Shown: in pieces, positions 4,606-60,327 of the stretch
Position numbering within the stretch: position 1 is the first letter of the stretch
Layout of the letters: each line of letters begins with the position of its first letter
Translations under genes and position numbers: made by a program
Virus record (IMG/VR): IMGVR_UViG_3300025030_000039
Coordinates: 124,878-188,877 of that record
Length of the DNA: 64,000 nt
Strand: one strand, 5' to 3'
Origin: a virus
The notes under the pieces: generated by a model
What the model was told of the DNA's origin: nothing
Database searches by the model: none
The model's input: only the letters and a program-made list of their open reading frames with translations

Positions 4606-6285
4606 TTAATTGTATACATTTTCATTATTAATTGAACCATGATTTAATGTTCCATCTGGAAATATAACTATTTTGTTTATAATTAAATCTTTATTTAAAG
4701 TATTATCGGGCAAAATATCTATATTTCCTAAATTTAAAGAAATAGGTCTATGTTGAAAAATATTCATAGGGTTAAAATTATCATTGGTAGCTAAATGTTT
4801 ACCTGAAAATATATTATCAGTATCTGCAGGTTTATAACTTTCAGTTCCATCTGGTAAAATAGATAATTTAAATGGCCTATTTGTATTAATACTATTAGGA
4901 AAAATATTATCTTTATCTACAGCATTATAGCTTTTAGTTCCAACTGGTAATAAAGGTTCTGTATTAGATTTAATATAACTAGCAGTTCCATCTTTAAGTA
5001 TAGGTTCTTCATTTAAATCAAATGTTCCGTGTGTTATATTTTGATATATTTTAACTTGGTTCATTTTAAATTTAGACACATCTATACCATGAAGTCCTTT
5101 ATAAATATTATCACTCATTCCAAATAAACCTTTAGCAAATTTAGTAACTCCACTTTCAATTGCACCACTTACTTTATCAATAGCTCCATTAATAACAGCC
5201 ATTCCTTTTCTTAAATATTTATTACTAGGCATATGAATGCCTGAATCCATTTGTATAAATCTTTTTCTTTTAGATTTATCTATAGTACCTTCTATTTTAT
5301 CTTTAGGTGTACCATTTTTAAGCATAGGATGATCTGTAATAATACTAGAATACCAAAGTGGAGCAGAATCTATTTCAAGTACTTGATATTCAAAAACTAA
5401 TTGTTGTTTAGTAGGTTCTGGTCTAACATTAGTAATATTTTCCCAGAATGCAGTACTCTCCATAGTATTGAATTCGCATTTTTTCGCAATAATAACATAT
5501 TGAGTTAAATTTTTCATTAATCTTCTAGCTGGATTATCACTATTATCACTACCTACATTATGACTTCTTGGTGCTAAATCTAAACCACTTAAAAGAGGAG
5601 TTGTATTATCAGCTTTCTTTTCTTTTATAAAATCTGTTTTACTATGAAATGGTCTAATATCTTGTATAAGAATTGTTACATTAAATTTTACAAGATTAGC
5701 AGGTATTATTTCCCTAACGAATTTAGAATCATAAGTAGCTGCTCTATATAAATCAAGTAATCCTGTTATAGCAAAATCCATAGATTCTAAACAATCAATA
5801 GATATTTTAGCATCATCACCTCCAGCAAAAGTAGAAAAATGATTATTATAAGTTTGCCATAATCTATCTAATCCAGTAATTCCTTGCCAATACCAAGGTT
5901 GATTTTGATTAATATATTGTAATCTGTTATAAAATTCTTGTAAATATTCTAATCTTATAGTTTCATTTTGTCTATATAAATATCCAGCTGCGCTATCTGC
6001 TGGATATGAAGGCTGTCCACTGCCTCCACTTCCACCCTGAAGACCTTTAAATAATGGGCTATCATACCAATCAAATAATAATTTAAATCCAAGATATGTA
6101 GGTTCACTGTATCTGCTATAGTCATGTGCAGTTCCTTTTTTAAATGCATTAACATCTGCAGACCAAAAAGTAGTACCTTTATTATCTATATCAGCATGAT
6201 ACATGATAGTTTTAGGATAATTACCTTTCAATAATCCTCCAACTGCGCCTTTTGCGGCATTCATTCCATCTTCTACTAATCCCAT
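4606..6285 (-). CDS. large tail/baseplate-associated protein (559 aa; hub- or wedge-like, unassigned)
   Basis: Lies directly upstream, in transcription order, of the spike. C-terminal repeats have the form [IL]P[DV]GTxSYxxxDxDNIF. Confidence 0.35.
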   Translation of the reverse strand: MGLVEDGMNAAKGAVGGLLKGNYPKTIMYHADIDNKGTTFWSADVNAFKKGTAHDYSRYSEPTYLGFKLLFDWYDSPLFKGLQGGSGGSGQPSYPADSAAGYLYRQNETIRLEYLQEFYNRLQYINQNQPWYWQGITGLDRLWQTYNNHFSTFAGGDDAKISIDCLESMDFAITGLLDLYRAATYDSKFVREIIPANLVKFNVTILIQDIRPFHSKTDFIKEKKADNTTPLLSGLDLAPRSHNVGSDNSDNPARRLMKNLTQYVIIAKKCEFNTMESTAFWENITNVRPEPTKQQLVFEYQVLEIDSAPLWYSSIITDHPMLKNGTPKDKIEGTIDKSKRKRFIQMDSGIHMPSNKYLRKGMAVINGAIDKVSGAIESGVTKFAKGLFGMSDNIYKGLHGIDVSKFKMNQVKIYQNITHGTFDLNEEPILKDGTASYIKSNTEPLLPVGTKSYNAVDKDNIFPNSINTNRPFKLSILPDGTESYKPADTDNIFSGKHLATNDNFNPMNIFQHRPISLNLGNIDILPDNTLNKDLIINKIVIFPDGTLNHGSINNENVYN

Positions 6286-6289
6286 TTTC

Positions 6290-7556
6290 TATATTTTATT
6301 TTGATGCGATGTAGTTTAATTTAAAATTAGAGGGACCACATACTCCTCTATGTAAAATATTCACTGCTGCATTATAATCTGCATCAATCTCTATTTTACA
6401 GCTTGAACATAAATAAACTTCACCTTTACGACTCTCTTTATCTATATTCGCGCATTTTGAACAAGTCTGGCTAGTATACGCTGGATTCACCTGCTTAATA
6501 AAGAAACCTTCTTCCTCGGCCAATAAATTTAATCTAGCATACACCTTTGGATAACTCCATCGCTGTATCTTATTCATTATTTTGTTATTTATATATTTGT
6601 TTGAATTATATTTAACATTTTTTAATTCTTCAATAATCAATTGATCGGGACTTTCATTTCTTATAAACTCTTTAACAGTTACATTAATTAACTCATCTCT
6701 TTCAATCAATGCTCTTTTAAATGATTTACTACCTTGCTCTTTTCTAGCTATCTTATAATAAATATTAAATAATTCTTTTCCATAATGTTCTCCTGAACTA
6801 GAAGATATTAATTTTTTATATCCTGTATCTATTCCTATAGACTTAATTATTTCTTTCTTTTTAGGTTCTTTCTTTTCCCATATTAAATCTATAAAAAATT
6901 TATCATCTTTTTTTCTTAATATTATTGTATTCTTTCTGTTCCAATTTTCGTTTATAAACCTATTACTTTGTCTATAATGCTTAATAGGAATATTAATTTT
7001 AACTGATAAATGTTTATTATCTTGAAAATAAGGAGTTTTAATTCTAATAAATTCATCAAATATATTTCCTTTTTTAATATCAAATAATCTATTATCAATA
7101 TACAATGAAACATTTTTAATTTGAATTTTTGGAATTCTTTTGATATAATTTATGTTTAATTCACTAAATCTTTTAGATGTAAAGTTTTGATGAATATTAT
7201 TTTTTATACATTTAGAATAAAGATATTTATATTTTTTATAAACTTTATTTTTAGATTTTTCTGTAGTACTTTTAATTATTTCAATTGCTTGTTTATATAT
7301 AATATGTTTCCATTGAGAGTGTTTAAAAATATAATTTGGTAAAATTTTAGATGATATAAATTTTTCAAAAGGTAAAGTTTTGTTTAAAATTAGATCGATA
7401 TAATATTGAAGCATTAGTTTATAATCATTATAGAATTGATCTATAATATTTAATTTTTCTTTATTTGAAAAACTTAAAACATGCTTACTCGTTCTTATCA
7501 TAATATATTTTCTTTAATAAATAAAAATTTTAATCAAATTGATGCGATGTACTCTC
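6290..7556 (-). mobile_element. IS1341-type (tnpB-only) insertion sequence, copy A, flanked by the 13-bp direct repeat TTGATGCGATGTA (6304-6316 and 7542-7554)
   Basis: About 90% aa identity to copy B. DNA identity to copy B ends right after GGTCCCTCTAATT at the 3' end on the minus strand. Confidence 0.55.
6296..7501 (-). CDS. tnpB: TnpB (IS200/IS605-family OrfB, RuvC-like nuclease with Zn finger), copy A
   Basis: RuvC-I SIGIDTGY, RuvC-II IIEELKNV, Zn finger CSKCANIDKESRKGEVYLCSSC, RuvC-III EIDADYNAAVNILHRG. Confidence 0.85.
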   Translation of the reverse strand: MIRTSKHVLSFSNKEKLNIIDQFYNDYKLMLQYYIDLILNKTLPFEKFISSKILPNYIFKHSQWKHIIYKQAIEIIKSTTEKSKNKVYKKYKYLYSKCIKNNIHQNFTSKRFSELNINYIKRIPKIQIKNVSLYIDNRLFDIKKGNIFDEFIRIKTPYFQDNKHLSVKINIPIKHYRQSNRFINENWNRKNTIILRKKDDKFFIDLIWEKKEPKKKEIIKSIGIDTGYKKLISSSSGEHYGKELFNIYYKIARKEQGSKSFKRALIERDELINVTVKEFIRNESPDQLIIEELKNVKYNSNKYINNKIMNKIQRWSYPKVYARLNLLAEEEGFFIKQVNPAYTSQTCSKCANIDKESRKGEVYLCSSCKIEIDADYNAAVNILHRGVCGPSNFKLNYIASK

Positions 7557-8940
7557 TTTTAAGAAGAGTTAATCTTTGTTTAATTGGTCCTGGAAAATTA
7601 TAAAAATATGTTATATCCGCAATAACATAATCACCACTTAAAAAATCATTTTTTAAAGGTGTTTTATCTAATGAATTTACTGTCTCTTCTTTCTGTATAC
7701 TTTTAGCAGTTTCTTCATAATTAAAAATAAATATAGGAACACTCTGAAATTTAGTTAATGTCATATCTGCAGATTCTAAAACTATATTCATTCCCATTTT
7801 AAATATTTCAGTTTTGTTTTGAAAGTTTAATACTTCAGAATATTTAAAATTTTCATGAACATTACCATCTGTTCTAGAATCTTGTTTTCCTAAATATTTA
7901 TATTTAACATGAGTATCAGAAACACCTTCAGGTACAAAATTATCCCCTTGTTTAATTAATCTTCCTTTTAAATGAACCATATTTTCAGAACCTTCAGTTG
8001 TTAATGGATCAACAAATTCACTTACATATTGATCTCCATCTACTTCAAAAAATTGCGCGTATCTTTTATATCCATTCATAAGAAATATTGTTCCACTATT
8101 ATTAAACATTTGATAATCAGTAATATATTTAGAAGTCCCTTCGAATGTAACATGATTAGTTAACATTAAAGGAGCTTTTTGAATATCTTTTTTTAATTCA
8201 TCAGGTGATACAGTATATCTAGCATCATTAACTCTATAAATTTCTGATTCAGTTATTTCAGAATCAATAGAAAATTGTTTATTAATATTTATAAAACATA
8301 AATTATAATACGAGTCAATATATGATGTAAAAAAACTCGTATCATCTTTATATACATTTGATAAAGAATCCTTTAAAAACTTTATTGTTGTATCTAATGG
8401 ATTAATCCATTTCATTTTATCATTAGTATTTTCTTCATTAGTGGCAAATCCTAATTCTAATTTTTGAGAAATTTCTAAAAATAAATCATAACTACTCATG
8501 TCATAAGATTCACAAAATTCAGTTAATAGATTTGGTACTTTCATTTGACCATAAATAGTAAATAATGTAGGTAACTTAGAAGATTTATCTCTAAATTGTG
8601 GACTAACGGATAAAATATCAAAATCTATTCTTATTTGTTTAAATACTTCTTCATTATTAGATCTTATTAAAAAGTTAATAACATCACCATCTCTTGGAAA
8701 AAATCTGGACATAAAGTTCATACTTTTATCTTGAACATTAACTCTAATTGTTGGTAAAAATGATGTTAAATTTAATTCAAATGAACCTAATTCTTTTATA
8801 TCAAATTCATAACCATTTATTTTAATTAATGGGAGATGTATACCTCCAAAATCTGAAGCATCACTTTCAGGAATAGCCATTTCATCAATAGTTATGGTTT
8901 TTTCAGTTATATTTAATATTGTATTTTCTAAATTTGCCAT
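7534..8940 (-). CDS. tail/baseplate-associated hypothetical protein (468 aa)
   Basis: Lies between the LysM gene and the spike region; its C-terminus ...EYIASI shares the 13-bp repeat with the IS flank. Confidence 0.3.
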   Translation of the reverse strand: MANLENTILNITEKTITIDEMAIPESDASDFGGIHLPLIKINGYEFDIKELGSFELNLTSFLPTIRVNVQDKSMNFMSRFFPRDGDVINFLIRSNNEEVFKQIRIDFDILSVSPQFRDKSSKLPTLFTIYGQMKVPNLLTEFCESYDMSSYDLFLEISQKLELGFATNEENTNDKMKWINPLDTTIKFLKDSLSNVYKDDTSFFTSYIDSYYNLCFININKQFSIDSEITESEIYRVNDARYTVSPDELKKDIQKAPLMLTNHVTFEGTSKYITDYQMFNNSGTIFLMNGYKRYAQFFEVDGDQYVSEFVDPLTTEGSENMVHLKGRLIKQGDNFVPEGVSDTHVKYKYLGKQDSRTDGNVHENFKYSEVLNFQNKTEIFKMGMNIVLESADMTLTKFQSVPIFIFNYEETAKSIQKEETVNSLDKTPLKNDFLSGDYVIADITYFYNFPGPIKQRLTLLKREYIASI

Positions 8941-8943
8941 TTA

Positions 8944-9549
8944 TTATTGTTTAATAGTTTTAAAATTTGCATCAAATGTTATTTTACCGTTTTTTATAAT
9001 AGTTCCTTTTTCTCCAGGTTGTAAATAATTAGTTGGTAATACTTCTTTAACAGCTCCTTTTTTTCCTTTAGCTTTTTCTTTTAATCTATCTATTCTATTC
9101 TGATCTTTTTCTGTTAATCTATCTATATCAACATATTGAGATCTTAAATCTTTTGCAACAGGTTCACCTGGAGTTTCATATACATCAGAAGCATTATCTA
9201 CTTTTGGTATAACTAAAATATCTCCAACATTAATACTAAATGGATTATAAATCGCATTAGCTTTACAAATCAAATCAATATATTCAGTACTACCATAATA
9301 TGTTAATGCTATTAAATCCATTCTCATAGCAGTCTCTTCAGTAACATAATAAATAGCCATGGTTTTAAGATCAATATCATGCTTAATTGATTGAGATGAT
9401 AAATCTAAATATTTATCTCCATCTTCATCAGTAAGAGTTTTTTTATTTTGTAAAGATTTAATATTCATATTTATTTTATTTTTTAAATCCAAAAAATCCA
9501 AAATCATCTGCATTATACAAAAGATCATACTTCTTTCTAACCCAATCAC
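8944..9549 (-). CDS. LysM-domain tail protein (gpX-like); the true start is probably the internal Met at about 9468, which would remove the overlap with the LRR gene
   Basis: YYVTEETAMRMDLIALTYYGSTEYIDLICKANAIYNPFSINVGDILVIPK fits the LysM consensus. Confidence 0.55.
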   Translation of the reverse strand: MIGLERSMIFCIMQMILDFLDLKNKINMNIKSLQNKKTLTDEDGDKYLDLSSQSIKHDIDLKTMAIYYVTEETAMRMDLIALTYYGSTEYIDLICKANAIYNPFSINVGDILVIPKVDNASDVYETPGEPVAKDLRSQYVDIDRLTEKDQNRIDRLKEKAKGKKGAVKEVLPTNYLQPGEKGTIIKNGKITFDANFKTIKQ

Positions 9550-10165
9550 TCACCTTTAACTTTCTTATTAACTCATACTTTATATATAAACTAGAATCTT
9601 GACTTAACCAATTATCAACTATATAATCTATATTATTTATATTTAATATTTTTAAATTTAAATCTAATAATTCTATAGGTAATATTGATGATTCATTATT
9701 TTTAAAATTAATTGATATATCTAATATATTTAAATTTTTTAATTTTAGCAATATAGTTGGAAAAGTAATAAAATTATTTTTAGATAAATATAAACCTCCT
9801 AAATTTTTTAAATTACCTATTTCCTTCGGCAACTCAGTTAATTGATTATCATGCAAATATAAATCTTTTAATTTTTCTAATTTTCCTATTTCTTTAGGTA
9901 ACTCCTTTAAATTATTATTAAATGCAGTTAATATTTTTAAATTTTTTAAATTACCTATCTCTTTTGGTAATTGTGTTAATTTATTGTTATATAAAAATAA
10001 ACGTTCTAAATTTTTCAATTTACCTATTTCTTTAGGTAAGTCATTTATATTTTTATCATTTAATCCTAAATCTTTTATATTTAAATCTTTTAATATTAAA
10101 TTTAAAATTTTTTCACTTTGCTTTGATTCATTTAAAAAATCCTTATATTTTTTAATATATTTCAT
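9476..10165 (-). CDS. leucine-rich repeat protein with MKYIK-type N-terminus and ADDFGF C-terminus
   Basis: About six 23-aa repeats of the form LPKEIGxLKNLxxLxLxxNxLxx. N-terminus MKYIKKYKDFLNES; C-terminus LLYNADDFGFFGFKK. Confidence 0.8.
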   Translation of the reverse strand: MKYIKKYKDFLNESKQSEKILNLILKDLNIKDLGLNDKNINDLPKEIGKLKNLERLFLYNNKLTQLPKEIGNLKNLKILTAFNNNLKELPKEIGKLEKLKDLYLHDNQLTELPKEIGNLKNLGGLYLSKNNFITFPTILLKLKNLNILDISINFKNNESSILPIELLDLNLKILNINNIDYIVDNWLSQDSSLYIKYELIRKLKVSDWVRKKYDLLYNADDFGFFGFKK

Positions 10166-10173
10166 AGTTAATT

Positions 10174-11997
10174 TTATGTATGTATCATTCCTTCATTTGA
10201 TAAAATTAAATTTTTAACTTTATTTGTTGTCCACTTTGTAAAATGAACAGAATTTTGAGCTGCTTTTTCTTGATTTTCTTGACTTATACCTATATCAGTT
10301 GCTCCATATCTTAATGCAGTTTCTGCATCTCCAGGTGTAAGTATACTACCATCTTGCCCAGAACCTTTACTGCCAGATGCAGTATGACCGCCTTTACCTT
10401 GTATTGCACCATATACTTCAATATCTTTTCCTTCTAAATTTAATATATCTGGAAAACTATCAGCTGATGCATATAATCTACCCATACCGGCGTTAAAAGC
10501 ACTTTCAAAATCTGATTTATCTCTAGGTCTTGCATGACTTAAATTACATTTTAATTGTATAATACTAGGAAAATCATCATATCCTAAAGGACCTTTAAAA
10601 GATATATTAGAATCTTTTAATATTAAATTACCAAACATTGCAATTGGATTCATAGGATTACCAACAGTTAAATGCCAGTTACCAGTAGGTTCACCAGTTA
10701 TTAAAGCTTTAACTGCTTGATATGCTGGTGCAGCACCAATTTGAGAATTTAAAAATCCCCCTAACATATTTCCTAGAAATGTTCCTCCGACTTTTTCTAA
10801 TCCATCTAAAACAGAATCGAATGTAAATGTACCTCCAGCTGTTCCAAATGTATTTTTAAAACCTCCTGATAAATCTGTAACAACACTACCTAAATATCCT
10901 TTAAAATCTCCACTTATTAATTTTTGTATATCTCCGAACTGACTAGCAATATATCCATTTCCTCCATAAAATCTATTAGCACCCCCCCAGAAATTAGCAT
11001 TACTATAAGTAAGCACTAATAAATTAGCAAATATATCTAACATTGCAATTCTAGGATTTAAATCACTATATGCTCTTAATTCATATTCAAAGTTAACTTC
11101 AATATCATGAGTAAAATTTAAACCTATATCTCTGGTCTGCATTTTATTTATAACATTAACTGGACCAATAACAAAATTTTCATATGTTTCCATTAATGGA
11201 TCATGACCAGCCATTCTTTCTCTTCTATATTTTTCCCCTGGACTAATACCTTTCATAGTATCAAATACTGCTCTACTTATATTACCAAGTTTAGAATAAA
11301 ATGGTTGTGCAGTATATCCTTCATTTTGTGATTGATACGTATTTGTTTCGCCAGTTTGTTCTTTCCAATTATATCCATACCCAAATGATAATATATCTGT
11401 TAAATCATTACCTGTGATATCACTCATCCATGTTAAAGCTCTAGCTAAGTCAGGAACAGTTACATTTTGTATATCTCCTAGTTGATTTTCATTTTTAGAA
11501 GTTGTTCTTCTAACGTCATAAATATTATCTTCACATGGCATAGCAAATCTTCTTAATGTTAGCATATAGTTATTTGCTATTTTATCATTATATTTAGCCC
11601 ATAAAAAATCAGACCAAGCATATTCTATACCTCCATATCTTTCATTAAAAAATTCTATTATATTTTGTGGAGTAGGATCTCTAGAAAAAGCAGGAGCTGT
11701 TAATGGATTATAACTATTATTAACATCATCTCTATAATATTTATATACTTCACCTTTCGGCATTCCATGTAAACCAAACCATGTAAATAAAGAATATCTA
11801 TTAGCTAAAGATAATGGAGCAGTATCAGATAAACTGGTAGCTCTTAATGTTTTTTGAGCTACTGTATATGCATAATTTAAATAAGCTACTTTATCAGTAG
11901 GATCAATTGTCATTAATTTTCTAACTTGTTCATAATCTGCTTGATTGAAATCTTGCTGAACAGGGACATTTAATCCAGTTGTAGTTTTATCTCCCAT
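10174..11997 (-). CDS. large structural-module protein (607 aa, Gly-rich C-terminal half), function unknown
   Basis: Co-directional and tightly spaced within the tail-like module. Confidence 0.3.
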   Translation of the reverse strand: MGDKTTTGLNVPVQQDFNQADYEQVRKLMTIDPTDKVAYLNYAYTVAQKTLRATSLSDTAPLSLANRYSLFTWFGLHGMPKGEVYKYYRDDVNNSYNPLTAPAFSRDPTPQNIIEFFNERYGGIEYAWSDFLWAKYNDKIANNYMLTLRRFAMPCEDNIYDVRRTTSKNENQLGDIQNVTVPDLARALTWMSDITGNDLTDILSFGYGYNWKEQTGETNTYQSQNEGYTAQPFYSKLGNISRAVFDTMKGISPGEKYRRERMAGHDPLMETYENFVIGPVNVINKMQTRDIGLNFTHDIEVNFEYELRAYSDLNPRIAMLDIFANLLVLTYSNANFWGGANRFYGGNGYIASQFGDIQKLISGDFKGYLGSVVTDLSGGFKNTFGTAGGTFTFDSVLDGLEKVGGTFLGNMLGGFLNSQIGAAPAYQAVKALITGEPTGNWHLTVGNPMNPIAMFGNLILKDSNISFKGPLGYDDFPSIIQLKCNLSHARPRDKSDFESAFNAGMGRLYASADSFPDILNLEGKDIEVYGAIQGKGGHTASGSKGSGQDGSILTPGDAETALRYGATDIGISQENQEKAAQNSVHFTKWTTNKVKNLILSNEGMIHT

Positions 11998-12019
11998 AAA
12001 TTATATTACTTTTATTTAT

Positions 12020-13225
12020 ATAGTTATTTTTTAATTAGAGGGACCATATACTCCTCTATGTAAAATATTCACTGCTGCATTATAATCTGCATCAATCTCT
12101 ATTTTACAACTTGAACATAAATAAACTTCACCTTTACGACTCTCTTTATCTATATTCCCGCATTCTGAACAAGTCTGGCTAGTATACGCTGGATTCACCT
12201 GCTTAATAAAGAAACCTTCTTCCTCGGCCAATAAATTTAATCTAGCATACACCTTTGGATAACTCCATCGCTGTATCTTGCTCATTATTTTGTTATTTAT
12301 ATATTTGTTTGATTTATGCTTAACATTTTTTAATTCCTCAATAATCAACTGATCAGGACTTTCATTTTTTATAAACTCTTTAACAGTTACATTAATTAAT
12401 TCATCTCTTTCAATCAATGCTCTTTTAAATGATTTACTACCTTGCTCTTTTCTAGCTATCTTAGCATAAATTTCAAATAAATTTCTTCCATAATACTCTC
12501 CTGAACTAGAAGATATTAATTTTTTATATCCTGCATCTATTCCTACCGATTTAATTATTTCTTTCTTTTTAGGTTCTTTCTTTTCCCATATTAAATCTAT
12601 AAAAAATTTATTATCTTTTTTTCTTAATATTATTGTATTCTTTCTTTTCCAGTTTTCGTTTATAAACCTATTACTATACATATGATATTTAATTGGAATA
12701 TTAATTTTAACTGATCTATATTTATTATCTTGAAAATATGGAGTATATAATTTTATAAATTCATCAAATTTATATCCTTTTTCAATATTAAATAATCTAT
12801 TATCAATATGCAATGAAATATTTTTAATCTGAATTTTTGGAATTCTTTTTATATAATTAATATTTAATTCATTAAATCTTTTAGATGTAAAATTTTGATG
12901 AATATTGTTTTTTATGCATTTAGAATAAAGATATTTATATTTTTTATAAACTTTATTTTTAGATTTTTCTGTAGTACTTTTAATTATTTCAATTGCCTGT
13001 TTATATACTATTTGTTTCCATACAGAATGATTAAAAATATAATTTGGAAGTTCTTTAGATGACAGAAATTTTTCAAAAGATAAAGTTTTGTTTAAAATTA
13101 GATCGATATAATATTGAAGCATTAGTTTATAATCATTATAGAATTGATCTATAATATTTAATTTTTCTTTATTTGAAAAACTTAAAACATGCTTACTTGT
13201 TCTTATCATATAATATATATTTGAA
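12020..13225 (-). mobile_element. IS1341-type insertion sequence, copy B, intergenic
   Basis: Ends inferred from where similarity to copy A stops. Confidence 0.5.
12031..13209 (-). CDS. tnpB: TnpB (IS200/IS605-family OrfB), copy B
   Basis: The first 40 aa are identical to copy A. Zn finger CSECGNIDKESRKGEVYLCSSC and all three RuvC motifs are present. Confidence 0.85.
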   Translation of the reverse strand: MIRTSKHVLSFSNKEKLNIIDQFYNDYKLMLQYYIDLILNKTLSFEKFLSSKELPNYIFNHSVWKQIVYKQAIEIIKSTTEKSKNKVYKKYKYLYSKCIKNNIHQNFTSKRFNELNINYIKRIPKIQIKNISLHIDNRLFNIEKGYKFDEFIKLYTPYFQDNKYRSVKINIPIKYHMYSNRFINENWKRKNTIILRKKDNKFFIDLIWEKKEPKKKEIIKSVGIDAGYKKLISSSSGEYYGRNLFEIYAKIARKEQGSKSFKRALIERDELINVTVKEFIKNESPDQLIIEELKNVKHKSNKYINNKIMSKIQRWSYPKVYARLNLLAEEEGFFIKQVNPAYTSQTCSECGNIDKESRKGEVYLCSSCKIEIDADYNAAVNILHRGVYGPSN

Positions 13226-58690: not shown

Positions 58691-59104
58691 ATGGAAGATT
58701 TTAAGTTACTAAAACTGTCAAGAGCGTGTAAAGAGTTTAATGTTACTAGACAGACTTTATATAATTGGAAGGAAAAGGGTGTGTTGAATTTTGTAAAAAT
58801 CGGTGGTTTGAATTTTATAAAAGAAGAAGATATAAAAGCATTAATTAATAAATAATTGAAGACAATTAAGTTGTCATATAAAACTTATAAAGATAGATTA
58901 AGTAGAATAGGTTTTGATTTTTTAAAAACACTTTTTGAGAAATTTACATGTGAGATAGAAGTTATATCTGAAGTAGGTTCTGCTAAACTTGATTCTGAAG
59001 AAATTTTTGAGGAAATAGTTCATTTACTTCATTGTTATAGTATGAAATTGTACTCAAGCAGACGTAATAAAAATATAGAAGACATATGCAAAGTGGAGAA
59101 CTAA
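58691..59104 (+). pseudogene. tnpA: IS607 TnpA serine recombinase remnant: HTH (58691-58855), in-frame TAA, then a C-terminal fragment (58856-59104); the catalytic core is deleted
   Basis: HTH LKLSRACKEFNVTRQTLYNWKEKGVLNFVKIGG. C-terminal fragment DRLSRIGFDFLKTLFEKFTCEIEVI...EEIVHLLHCYSMKLYSSRRNK matches resolvase C-terminal conservation. There is no YARVSS catalytic Ser region. Confidence 0.55.
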
Positions 59105-60327
59105 CTCAAGTAGAGAAACATATACTTACTTCATCTGAACTTTATGACTTAACATTTAAAGCAAAAAATCTTTATAATGCTGCTTTATGGATCATAAGAC
59201 AATCGTTCTGCAAAACTAAAGAATTAAGACACGAGTCTAAAATGATCTTCTATAACGAACTTTACACTTTGATGAAAGATCATGAAGCATATAAAGCATT
59301 ACCTGCTGTGGCTGCTTAACAAATCTTAAGAACTCTAGACAAGAACTTCAAATCTTATTTCATGTTCATTAAAGATTGGAAGAAAAATCCATCTAAATAT
59401 TTAGGTATGCCAAAGCTTCCTAACTACATGAAGAAAGATGGTCATGCAACTTTTGCAATTCCAGGACAAACTTTTAGAACATTAAAAAATGGATTAACAA
59501 TACCAAAAACTAAAGAAAAGTCATCTAACATAAAAACTAAAGTAACTAAAGAAAAATTAAAAGAAGTAAGAATCATACCACTTTCACAAAAAAATAAAGT
59601 AAAAGTAGAAGTAATATATTCTAAAGAAAAACAAAATCTTAATTTAAATAAAGAAAATGCAATAGGAATTGACATTGGTGTAAATAACTTAATGGCTATA
59701 ACTTCAAATCAGATAGATCCTCTAGTATGTCTAATAAATGGTAGACCATTAAAGTCAATAAATCAATATTTTAACAAAAAATCTACAAAACTTAAGTCAG
59801 CTTTAGAAAAATGTCAAGGAAGAAAAACATCAAGAAAACTTGAGAAATTAAATCAAAAAAGACAAAACAAAATTGATGATTATCTTCATAAAGCAAGTAA
59901 GAAAGTTATTGATTTATGTAAAGAAAATAACATCGGGACTATAGTTATAGGTCATAATAAAGAATGGAAGCAAGAATGCAACTTAGGAAAAGTTAACAAC
60001 CAAAACTTTATTCAGTTGCCTTTCAATAAGTTAATTGGTATGATAACTTACAAAGCAGATTTAATTTCTAATGATGTTAAAGTTTCTGAAGAGTCTTACA
60101 CAAGTAAAATTGATCATCTTGCTAATGAAGAAATGAAAAAACAAGAAACGTATAAAGGCAAAAGAATAAAGAGAGGATTGTTCTTAAGCAGCATTTGTAA
60201 AGTACTTAATGCAGACACAAATGGAAGCATCGGTATCTTAAGAAAAAAGAAAGCAGTTTCTAAAGAGTGGCTTGCCACTGTAGGAAATAGAGGTTGTGTG
60301 TATCAGCCATTTAAAATAAGTTTATAA
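59086..60327 (+). pseudogene. tnpB: IS607-type TnpB with an in-frame TAA (59317-59319) at a conserved Gln position
   Basis: ...YKALPAVAA*QILRTLDKNFKSYF is continuous in a single frame. RuvC-I GIDIGVNN, RuvC-II SEESYTSK, RuvC-III LNADTNGSIGI; no Zn finger. Confidence 0.6.

Follow-up and report, generated by a model that had tools for sequence, protein, structure and literature searches.

TnpB is a small RNA-guided nuclease and the ancestor of Cas12. Here we describe two closely related tnpB genes, copies A and B, in a 64,000-nucleotide (nt) stretch of phage DNA (the window). The window corresponds to bases 322,381–386,380 of LR756500.1, a 462,018-base-pair (bp) “uncultured phage” assembly without annotation, and whole-genome checks were run over all 462,018 bp. 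Coordinates are those of the window unless a record position is given. G and C make up 26% of the window and 24% of the whole genome. Both tnpB copies lie within a tightly packed minus-strand baseplate and tail module, whose members include a gp5-like hub protein (Phage_base_V), a T4 gp13-like protein and a baseplate-wedge-like protein of 174 amino acids (aa). The genes on which the analysis turns are the following:

6296–7501, minus strand: tnpB copy A, an open reading frame (ORF) of 401 aa
12031–13209, minus strand: tnpB copy B, an ORF of 392 aa
7534–8940, minus strand: a baseplate-module gene of 468 aa, the 3′ end of which is the target of insertion A
4606–6285, minus strand: a gene of 559 aa directly downstream of copy A
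10174–11997, minus strand: a gene of 607 aa directly downstream of copy B

As a preliminary description of the window had stated, the two tnpB genes are co-oriented, about 90% identical and some 4.5 kb apart: 4,529 nt separate them, they stand in register with a constant offset of 5,708 nt, and they agree at 93% of nucleotides (over 1,199 nt) and 90% of amino acids. Their likeness begins about 8 nt upstream of the ATG and is clean through GGTCCCTCTAATT, the point at which they had been thought to diverge; beyond it, a degenerate likeness runs on for 14–15 nt (…AAACTAC(AT) in A, …TAACTAT(AT) in B).

Both proteins match the Pfam family Cas12f1-like_TNB (PF07282) with 62–65 bits at a cut-off of 26.3, as well as a PHROG transposase family, and their best relatives of solved structure are Cas12f and TnpB, the alignment covering the RuvC and zinc-ribbon part. 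In an alignment of 30 sequences (28 homologues together with A and B), the catalytic residues D225 (GIDxG), E291 and D375 (DAD) are invariant, as are the zinc-ribbon cysteines C347, C350, C365 and C368 (CxxC..CxxC). Judged by sequence, A and B are TnpB genes with intact catalytic residues. The ratio of non-synonymous to synonymous divergence (dN/dS) between the copies is 0.35, indicating that the proteins are under purifying selection.

The copies also recombine with each other. At the locus of a sister strain (L144; ENA ERZ28564339, ANAN16-1 scaffold_63) both are present at the same places, and over 15.4 kb this locus differs from the window at 42 positions, all of which fall within tnpB-B and form two tracts. 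At 42 of these 42 positions, copy B of the sister strain carries the A sequence, so that the locus gives direct evidence of gene conversion between copies. Recombination between the two had been anticipated, also as a means of deleting the intervening structural genes; the collections searched contained no strain that lacks the 6.3–13.2 kb interval or either copy, and the intervening baseplate-module genes were not seen deleted.

Lineage and the missing transposase

Homologues of A and B number in the hundreds, the closest being about 60% identical. In the three closest homologues for which contigs were fetched, a serine recombinase gene of 197–198 aa lies directly upstream, and its stop codon overlaps the tnpB ATG. 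This recombinase reaches 181 bits on the NCBIfam model transpos_IS607 (cut-off 110) and is, on the strength of this match, a bona fide IS607 transposase. A tnpA-type gene is found in 14 of the 67 non-redundant full-length family members, scattered over the diversity of the family, and the rest are solo. Members turn up frequently in the viral contigs of IMG/VR, where two or three copies on one contig are common. To judge from these relatives, the tnpB family of A and B is an IS607-linked lineage that is AT-rich at its ends.

Two further observations concern the relatives. Two contigs (L230 and L238, carrying P0098 and P0089) hold full IS607-type elements, tnpA and tnpB relatives included, in phage-like contexts; there the elements adjoin ribonucleotide reductase and family-B DNA polymerase genes bearing inteins, and several kinds of selfish elements are thus clustered. 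In the IMG/VR contigs L084–L091, L115 and L121, in-frame TGA occupies conserved tryptophan positions of tnpB (for example DAD-TGA-NAS), which suggests that these phages read TGA as a sense codon.

There is no serine-recombinase tnpA beside A or B, and a whole-genome tblastn search for tnpA returned fragments only (58,691–59,104 in the window and record positions 429,755–429,898). Y1 transposases were absent from the relatives examined, which have a Resolvase-type TnpA instead; a genome-wide Y1 search was not run. Equally, no left end with TnpA sites is detectable for either copy. Upstream of the A gene, a short leader separates the ATG from the 13-bp repeat described below:

7502–7538, minus strand: AT-rich leader of A, 37 nt, between the upstream repeat and the tnpB-A ATG; part of a 1,238-bp insertion

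This leader shows no significant likeness to the 50 nt upstream of B, to the left ends of the relatives or to tnpA 3′ ends (shuffle p 0.08–0.86), and no similarity to the rest of the genome; the sequence upstream of B is likewise unlike the left ends of the relatives. Aligning the genomic copies, put forward earlier as a way of defining both ends of the element, placed the right ends (see below) and yielded no shared left end.

The genome contains three other traces of tnpB. A second IS607-like remnant, unrelated to tnpB A and B, occupies 58691–60327 on the plus strand. It consists of a 54-aa helix-turn-helix ORF (HTH_17/excisionase-like) and an 82-aa piece, which match the two ends (N- and C-terminal) of an IS607 TnpA whose catalytic middle is missing, and of a distinct tnpB that is split into 59086–59319 and 59362–60327 (Pfam OrfB_IS605, 83 bits; NCBIfam guided_TnpB, 121 bits). 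Outside the window, a third and decayed copy of the same tnpB as A and B lies at 432,718–432,999 of LR756500.1 on the plus strand (L248 46338–46619). Only its 3′ part of about 287 nt remains (88.5% identity); two insertions of 1 nt shift the frame, and a deletion of 12 nt takes out the DAD motif and the inner stem of helix H3. The fragment begins at an internal ATATATAAATAA motif. Finally, a distant TnpB-like coding region, 26% identical to TnpB-A over 218 aa, is found at record positions 235,599–236,240 on the minus strand (L245).

A predicted guide RNA at the right end

The 3′ flanks of the two copies had been named as the place where an omega-RNA guide would be expected. Folding of the last ~190 nt gives z-scores of −2.8 (A) and −3.1 (B) relative to shuffles. 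On the codon alignment of 67 relatives, 66.6% of the cells at the predicted pairs are canonical, as against 32–47% when the 3′ partners are slid. For the two 3′-most helices in 33 relatives, 80.5% of the cells are paired (40–55% slid), 12 pairs change on both sides (6.5 in shuffles), and the observed covariation was reached by 0 of 500 shuffles. Helix H4 (AGAGG/CCUCU) is 99% paired and switches between G-C/U-A, A-U/G-C and G-C/A-U. The loop of H4 pairs with the extreme end of the element to form a pseudoknot, for which two independent compensatory changes are seen, one between the copies (AUGUGG/CUACAU in A, AUAUGG/CUAUAU in B) and one between relatives (ATAGTT/AACTAT in L100/101, ACAGTT/AACTGT in L102/104). 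In addition, A and B have diverged little at synonymous sites within the last 186 nt (0.027, as against 0.14–0.22 elsewhere), which fits an overlapping RNA.

In phage contigs with several copies, the likeness between copies ends right after the 3′ strand of the pseudoknot (…GACTGT, …AACTAT). Together, the pseudoknot and the end of copy likeness place the right end at 6311/6309 in A and at 12020/12018 in B. Covariation thus supports a structured RNA that overlaps the 3′ end of tnpB and stops at the border of the element, in keeping with the expected position of the guide:

6309–6400, minus strand: predicted guide-RNA (omega-RNA) scaffold core of A, with H3, H4 and the pseudoknot in which the H4 loop AUGUGG pairs with the terminal CUACAU
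12018–12108, minus strand: predicted guide-RNA scaffold core of B, in which the H4 loop AUAUGG pairs with CUAUAU
6289–6308, minus strand: predicted guide of A, CGCATCAAAATAAAATATAG, deduced from the position of the right end, its start uncertain by 2 nt
11998–12017, minus strand: predicted guide of B, AAATAAAAGTAATATAATTT, deduced likewise and extending to the ATG of the 607-aa gene

The predicted guide of A covers the ancestral gene end and the spacer just ahead of the ATG of the 559-aa gene. The tail from H4 to the right end measures 41–42 nt in A and B and 56–72 nt in relatives, and such a short guide-RNA tail may interest genome-editing work. No Rfam family matches in the region, RAGATH-18 included.

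A more distant right end was also considered. Near the next ATG downstream of B (and, by analogy, of A) stands …AAGTAATAT, which resembles the …AAGTAATTAT terminus of IS607 relatives. This candidate was rejected because the orthologous junctions show TATATAAATAAAAG at site B and GCATCAAAATAA at site A to be ancestral phage sequence.

The motif TATAAATA, the T4 late-promoter consensus, occurs at 12013–12020 on the minus strand, where it straddles the border between the right end of copy B and its flank, with the ATG of the 607-aa gene some 20 nt further on. Each tnpB ORF contains the motif twice as well (minus-strand motif starts 6586, 7224, 12294 and 12932). Of these internal sites, one precedes the right end by about 270 nt, at the point where the decayed third copy begins, and may be a promoter for the guide RNA.

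The maintained RNA bears on the question of whether the two genes are functional at all. If two full IS607 insertions had each lost their left end and tnpA in place, A and B would be decaying relics without function and the 13-bp repeat an accident of decay. Such a history would explain why tnpA and the left end are missing, and the genome does hold clearly decayed pieces (record positions 432,718–432,999; the broken tnpA and split tnpB at 58,691–60,327). It is nevertheless unlikely for A and B: both ORFs are intact with all catalytic residues and zinc ligands, dN/dS is 0.35, and the RNA structure has been maintained, including the compensatory change in the pseudoknot between the copies. Moreover, two or three independent deletions to the same nucleotide before the ATG would be improbable, and solo copies with an identical 5′ limit recur in the family.

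The insertion sites and the 13-bp repeat

Copy A is bracketed by an exact 13-bp direct repeat, TTGATGCGATGTA on the plus strand. The repeat had been noticed before, with coordinates that were 3 nt too high; the positions are 6301–6313 and 7539–7551, and these are the sole two occurrences in the window and in the 462,018-bp genome. As a control, a shared word of at least 13 nt was found in 1 of 593 mismatched pairs of upstream and downstream flanks from 58 non-redundant family loci, so that the repeat is not a matter of chance.

6301–6313, minus strand: downstream repeat copy (13 bp), which the tnpB strand reads as TACATCGCATCAA; this 13-mer and the AATAA after it formed the original 3′ end of the 468-aa gene
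7539–7551, minus strand: upstream copy of the 13-bp repeat, in which the 468-aa gene now has its last codons (Y I A S)

The 468-aa gene now ends with ATT TGA at 7534–7539, its product closing with …REYIASI. The element's own stop codon is gone from tnpB-A (TTT in place of the TAA of B), and the frame therefore runs on for nine codons (FKLNYIASK) to end, as …NYIASK, at the ancestral stop of the 468-aa gene. The shared YIAS ends had led to the proposal that the element landed in the 3′ end of this gene, the last codons of which were regenerated, and the orthologous junctions agree with it. The 468-aa protein shares no more than 54% identity with its orthologues. In the orthologous modules L226–L229 the gene order is 616/584 aa, 173/175 aa, 474/477 aa, 501/388 aa and gp5-like, without tnpB, and in relatives the orthologue of the 559-aa gene comes straight after that of the 468-aa gene. 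Across the junction of the 474- and 501-aa genes, the sequence is aga gaa ttc ata gca cca aaa taa, 13 nt, atg; in L229, the stop codon overlaps the start codon of the next gene. When the flanks of the window are joined at A, they read aga gag TAC ATC GCA TCA AAA TAA, 10 nt, ATG. This matches the orthologue at 20 of 24 nt and reconstructs a gene product ending in …REYIASK, as compared with …REFIAPK in the orthologue. The match identifies the downstream repeat as the original gene end and A as a 1,238-bp insertion with a 13-bp target duplication. On this reconstruction, the duplicated 13 nt regenerate the C-terminus of the 468-aa gene. We also considered a 56-nt ancestral spacer at A that already held the repeat, with tnpB inserted right after AATATAT, and rejected it because the junction of the relatives is 13 nt long or overlapping and the gene ends match at 20 of 24 nt.

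As for site B, the orthologue of the 607-aa gene is preceded in relatives by about 60 nt of intergenic DNA without tnpB. In L226, …TTTCTAATATATAAAATAAAAATAC ATG matches the joined flanks of the window, which read …TTTCAAATATAT(AT) on one side of the border and (TAT)ATAAATAAAAG… on the other. Given this match, B sits in or next to the TATAAATA motif and has a repeat of at most 5–6 nt of AT (TATAT(A)). Both repeats start with TAYAT, the sequence that ends the RNA scaffold, and the first 3–5 nt of the downstream repeat of A are at the same time the 3′ strand of the guide-RNA pseudoknot. The right end of A falls within the 13-mer (TAC(AT) before the border, CGCATCAA after it) and hence later than the divergence point first proposed. 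The reconstructed empty sites join GAGTACAT to CGCATCAAAATAAAATATAG at A and …CAAATATAT to AAATAAAAGTAATATAATTT at B.

Read on the plus strand, the 13-mer starts with TTGAT, which the preliminary description had linked to the target and transposon-adjacent motif (TAM) of ISDra2 TnpB while classing the copies as IS1341-type. The link fails because a TAM has to precede the element on the strand that reads as tnpB, whereas the repeat carries TTGAT on the opposite strand (in tnpB sense it reads TACATCGCATCAA). There is, moreover, no TTGAT upstream of B. A second, sense-strand TTGAT does exist at 7533–7537, since ATCAATTTGAT is palindromic, and these are tnpB-only elements, like those of the IS1341 group; the IS1341 label is right only in a loose sense. 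With ISDra2 TnpB and the IS1341-type members of IS200/IS605 (PMC8612924), A and B share a protein of about 400 aa with RuvC and zinc ribbon and, as predicted here, a guide RNA from the gene 3′ end and flank and a role in homing or retention. That they are ISDra2-like IS200/IS605 elements inserted 3′ of a TTGAT target is nonetheless highly improbable. The sequence relation is distant (IS200_TnpB, 45–56 bits at a cut-off of 425), and the closest relatives carry IS607-type serine recombinases, with no Y1 transposase among those examined. A and B have no subterminal hairpin ends, no left-end hairpin and neither a recognisable nor a shared left end, and the left borders of the relatives end in AATAT-like motifs.

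IS607 elements with TnpB and omega-RNA, such as the Clostridium botulinum IStron (PMC10690162), are closer. There too a serine-recombinase tnpA overlaps the tnpB start, as in the closest relatives of A and B, the guide-RNA scaffold overlaps the tnpB 3′ end (a prediction in our case), the guide is the adjoining flank, and the end of the scaffold mirrors the bases that close the left flank, that is, the TAM. The differences are that A and B are without tnpA and without a left end, that their ends and presumed TAM are AT-rich (…CTAYAT) rather than GG or G-rich, and that they stay far under the IS607_TnpB cut-off and match neither RAGATH-18 nor any other Rfam family. In IS607, the donor joint combines TAM and target and is cleaved by TnpB, and the scaffold end mirrors the TAM end (PMC10690162); transposition of IS607 and IS605 produces no duplication of the kind seen at A (PMC6188088, PMC13565253). 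Copy B, where TATAT(A) is shared, is compatible with this. At A, the TAYAT pentamer is likewise expected, whereas the extra 8 nt (CGCATCAA) at the left junction are not.

One way to account for them would be a conventional target-site duplication by some transposase or integrase that moves a tnpB cassette, or else Campbell-type integration of a circle through 13-nt microhomology. An exact 13-bp repeat that brackets a 1,238-bp insert, its downstream copy ancestral, looks like such an event, the more so as IS607 and IS605 transposition yields none such. We still regard it as improbable, given that there are no terminal inverted repeats and no candidate enzyme, that the repeat of B comprises at most 5–6 nt of AT, that flank repeats are not a trait of the family, and that a conventional duplication would not predict a repeat starting exactly with the pentamer that ends the RNA scaffold.

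Whether such repeats characterise the family was examined; they do not, the controls being surpassed only at copy A (13 nt) and at L084/L085 (17 nt, all A/T). The latter two loci (IMG/VR UViG_3300042276_000188 and 3300042278_000126) carry a solo tnpB of the same family with an imperfect flank duplication of about 30 nt, of which 17 nt are exact (ATATAAATAGTTAAAAA). What is duplicated is a promoter-like region, found at about −73 and +62 relative to tnpB.

Probable RNA-guided homing in a baseplate module

We consider it probable that A and B are non-autonomous modules of tnpB and guide RNA that are kept by RNA-guided homing. Each unit extends from a few nt before the ATG to a short right end 14–20 nt past the GPSN codons. 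The last ~75–90 nt of the ORF and the tail encode the predicted scaffold, with two helices and a pseudoknot whose 3′ strand ends the element, and about 16–20 nt of adjoining phage DNA would be transcribed as the guide. In the mechanism we propose, the TnpB–RNA complex would cut DNA that has the TAM directly beside the guide-matching flank, be it the insertion-free allele of a co-infecting relative or a genome that lost the element. For the TAM, the probable candidate is a TAYAT-like sequence rich in A and T that recurs as the terminus of the element itself; in one multi-copy group of relatives, the left borders end in AATAT. Repair from the occupied genome would restore or spread tnpB together with the neighbouring baseplate genes, and the modules would probably spread among related phages via cutting and recombinational repair.

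Much of this has precedents. Homing of IS605 and IS607 TnpB has been shown in bacteria (PMC10055086, PMC10690162), homing between co-infecting phages is an anticipated mode (PMC13565253), and TnpB genes are known to be common in phages, with reports that extend to huge phages (PMC12607003). Solo tnpB genes and homing being established, what is unusual here is the flank repeat of A. The free-standing homing endonuclease genes of T4-like phages (seg, mob; PMC13565253) are comparable in that small nuclease genes are wedged, co-oriented, between packed conserved genes, and in the expected cleavage of the gene-less allele with co-conversion of flanks. They differ in that target recognition is by protein and, as predicted here, by RNA for A and B, whose family is kin to transposon nucleases and for which homing is a proposal.

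For the 13-bp repeat, we propose an origin as a repair scar. Because TnpB cuts far from the TAM, the left DNA end would keep the TAM and the first target nucleotides; it would be joined without homology while the right end copies the element from the donor. The repeat left behind would then consist of the TAM/terminus pentamer TACAT and the first 8 nt of the guide (CGCATCAA), as is observed. This is the origin we prefer, although it is unproven. Copying of the unit via an RNA intermediate found no support, since there is neither a remnant of a donor guide nor a shared leader. Units lacking transposase and left end are present at three loci of this genome. A bolder proposal, which we put forward as speculative and rather unlikely, is that tnpB and guide units of this kind colonise new phage sites by their own cut and one-sided, partly non-homologous repair, the 13-bp repeat being the first recognisable scar, and that the TAM and seed may be bound uncleaved, thereby regulating tnpB-A or the upstream baseplate gene.

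Regulation also enters the possibility that the genes have been domesticated, either as a regulator or roadblock at partial sites, in the manner of the nuclease-dead TldR repressors, or as a weapon against competing phages or the host. The upstream 13-mer amounts to a TAM-like TACAT with an 8–10-nt seed match to guide A, placed at the end of the 468-aa gene and 37 nt ahead of the tnpB-A ATG. Exapted TnpB repressors are known (PMC10705468), and with these A and B share that a TnpB-derived protein is found outside a functional transposon, with a short partial guide match upstream of A; the family is, furthermore, common and often multi-copy in viral contigs. Domestication is all the same distinctly unlikely: the D-E-D triad is intact in A and B, unlike in TldR, copy B has no such partial site, and the guides are the native adjoining flanks, as in selfish elements. 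Nor does the genome offer a CRISPR array or another source of guides. A genome-wide scan for CRISPR arrays found none and turned up only 69-nt coding repeats of leucine-rich-repeat (LRR) genes; in this respect A and B differ from type V CRISPR-Cas systems (Cas12f-like), there being no array adjacent to them or elsewhere in the genome.

Several points weigh against homing modules as the explanation. On NCBIfam, A and B remain below the cut-offs of all three TnpB models, with 87–89 bits for guided_TnpB (NF040570; cut-off 100), 27 bits for IS607_TnpB (350) and the 45–56 bits for IS200_TnpB given above (425), and belong to a divergent TnpB lineage. The conservation between A and B at the 3′ end could in part reflect recent gene conversion instead of constraint on an RNA. 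An insertion-free allele was present in none of the collections searched, including pattern scans of viral contigs: a 4,598-nt Logan contig represents only the segment between the copies, broken at the repeats, a metagenome scan retrieved only relatives of at most 46% identity, and single-protein scans of viral contigs found little. The empty sites are accordingly rebuilt only from orthologues of about 45–54% identity. We infer guide-RNA expression, the TAM, cleavage and homing during co-infection, and the TAM is a guess from few left borders. The scar is based on a single case, and in L084/L085 the downstream repeat lies about 30 nt past the right end, which misfits the scar model. Nor does the explanation account for the arrival of units without a left end at three loci in one genome.

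The locus is a clean natural case of RNA-guided nuclease genes placed like homing endonuclease genes among essential baseplate genes, and it is a useful one, as the empty sites can be reconstructed and a guide is predicted for each copy. The family, which is IS607-linked, AT-rich at its ends and often solo or multi-copy, raises the question of how copies that lack a left end can spread. Should the 13-bp repeat indeed be a scar left by the repair of an RNA-guided cut, this would suggest that tnpB can move without a transposase.

Some features of the surrounding module remain to be recorded; a literature search for the accession found no mention of it. In two homologues of the 468-aa protein (P0010 and P0071), a domain of the phage lysozyme (PF00959) or peptidase M23 (PF01551) type forms part of the same polypeptide, and these fusions hint that the 468-aa protein is a baseplate or tail-tip component linked to cell-wall lysis. 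At 8944–9549 on the minus strand, the program-made list of ORFs gives a 201-aa product with a GTG start that overlaps the end of an LRR gene. The public gene calls at this site give a 174-aa product starting at 9468, which fits the orthologues of 173–175 aa. The LRR gene itself (9476–10165, minus strand, 229 aa) lies between the two tnpB copies and has no counterpart in the modules L226–L229, where the gene of 616/584 aa is followed directly by that of 173/175 aa; it looks like another insertion into the baseplate cluster. A comparable LRR gene with a 69-nt period is found at about 261.6 kb of the record.

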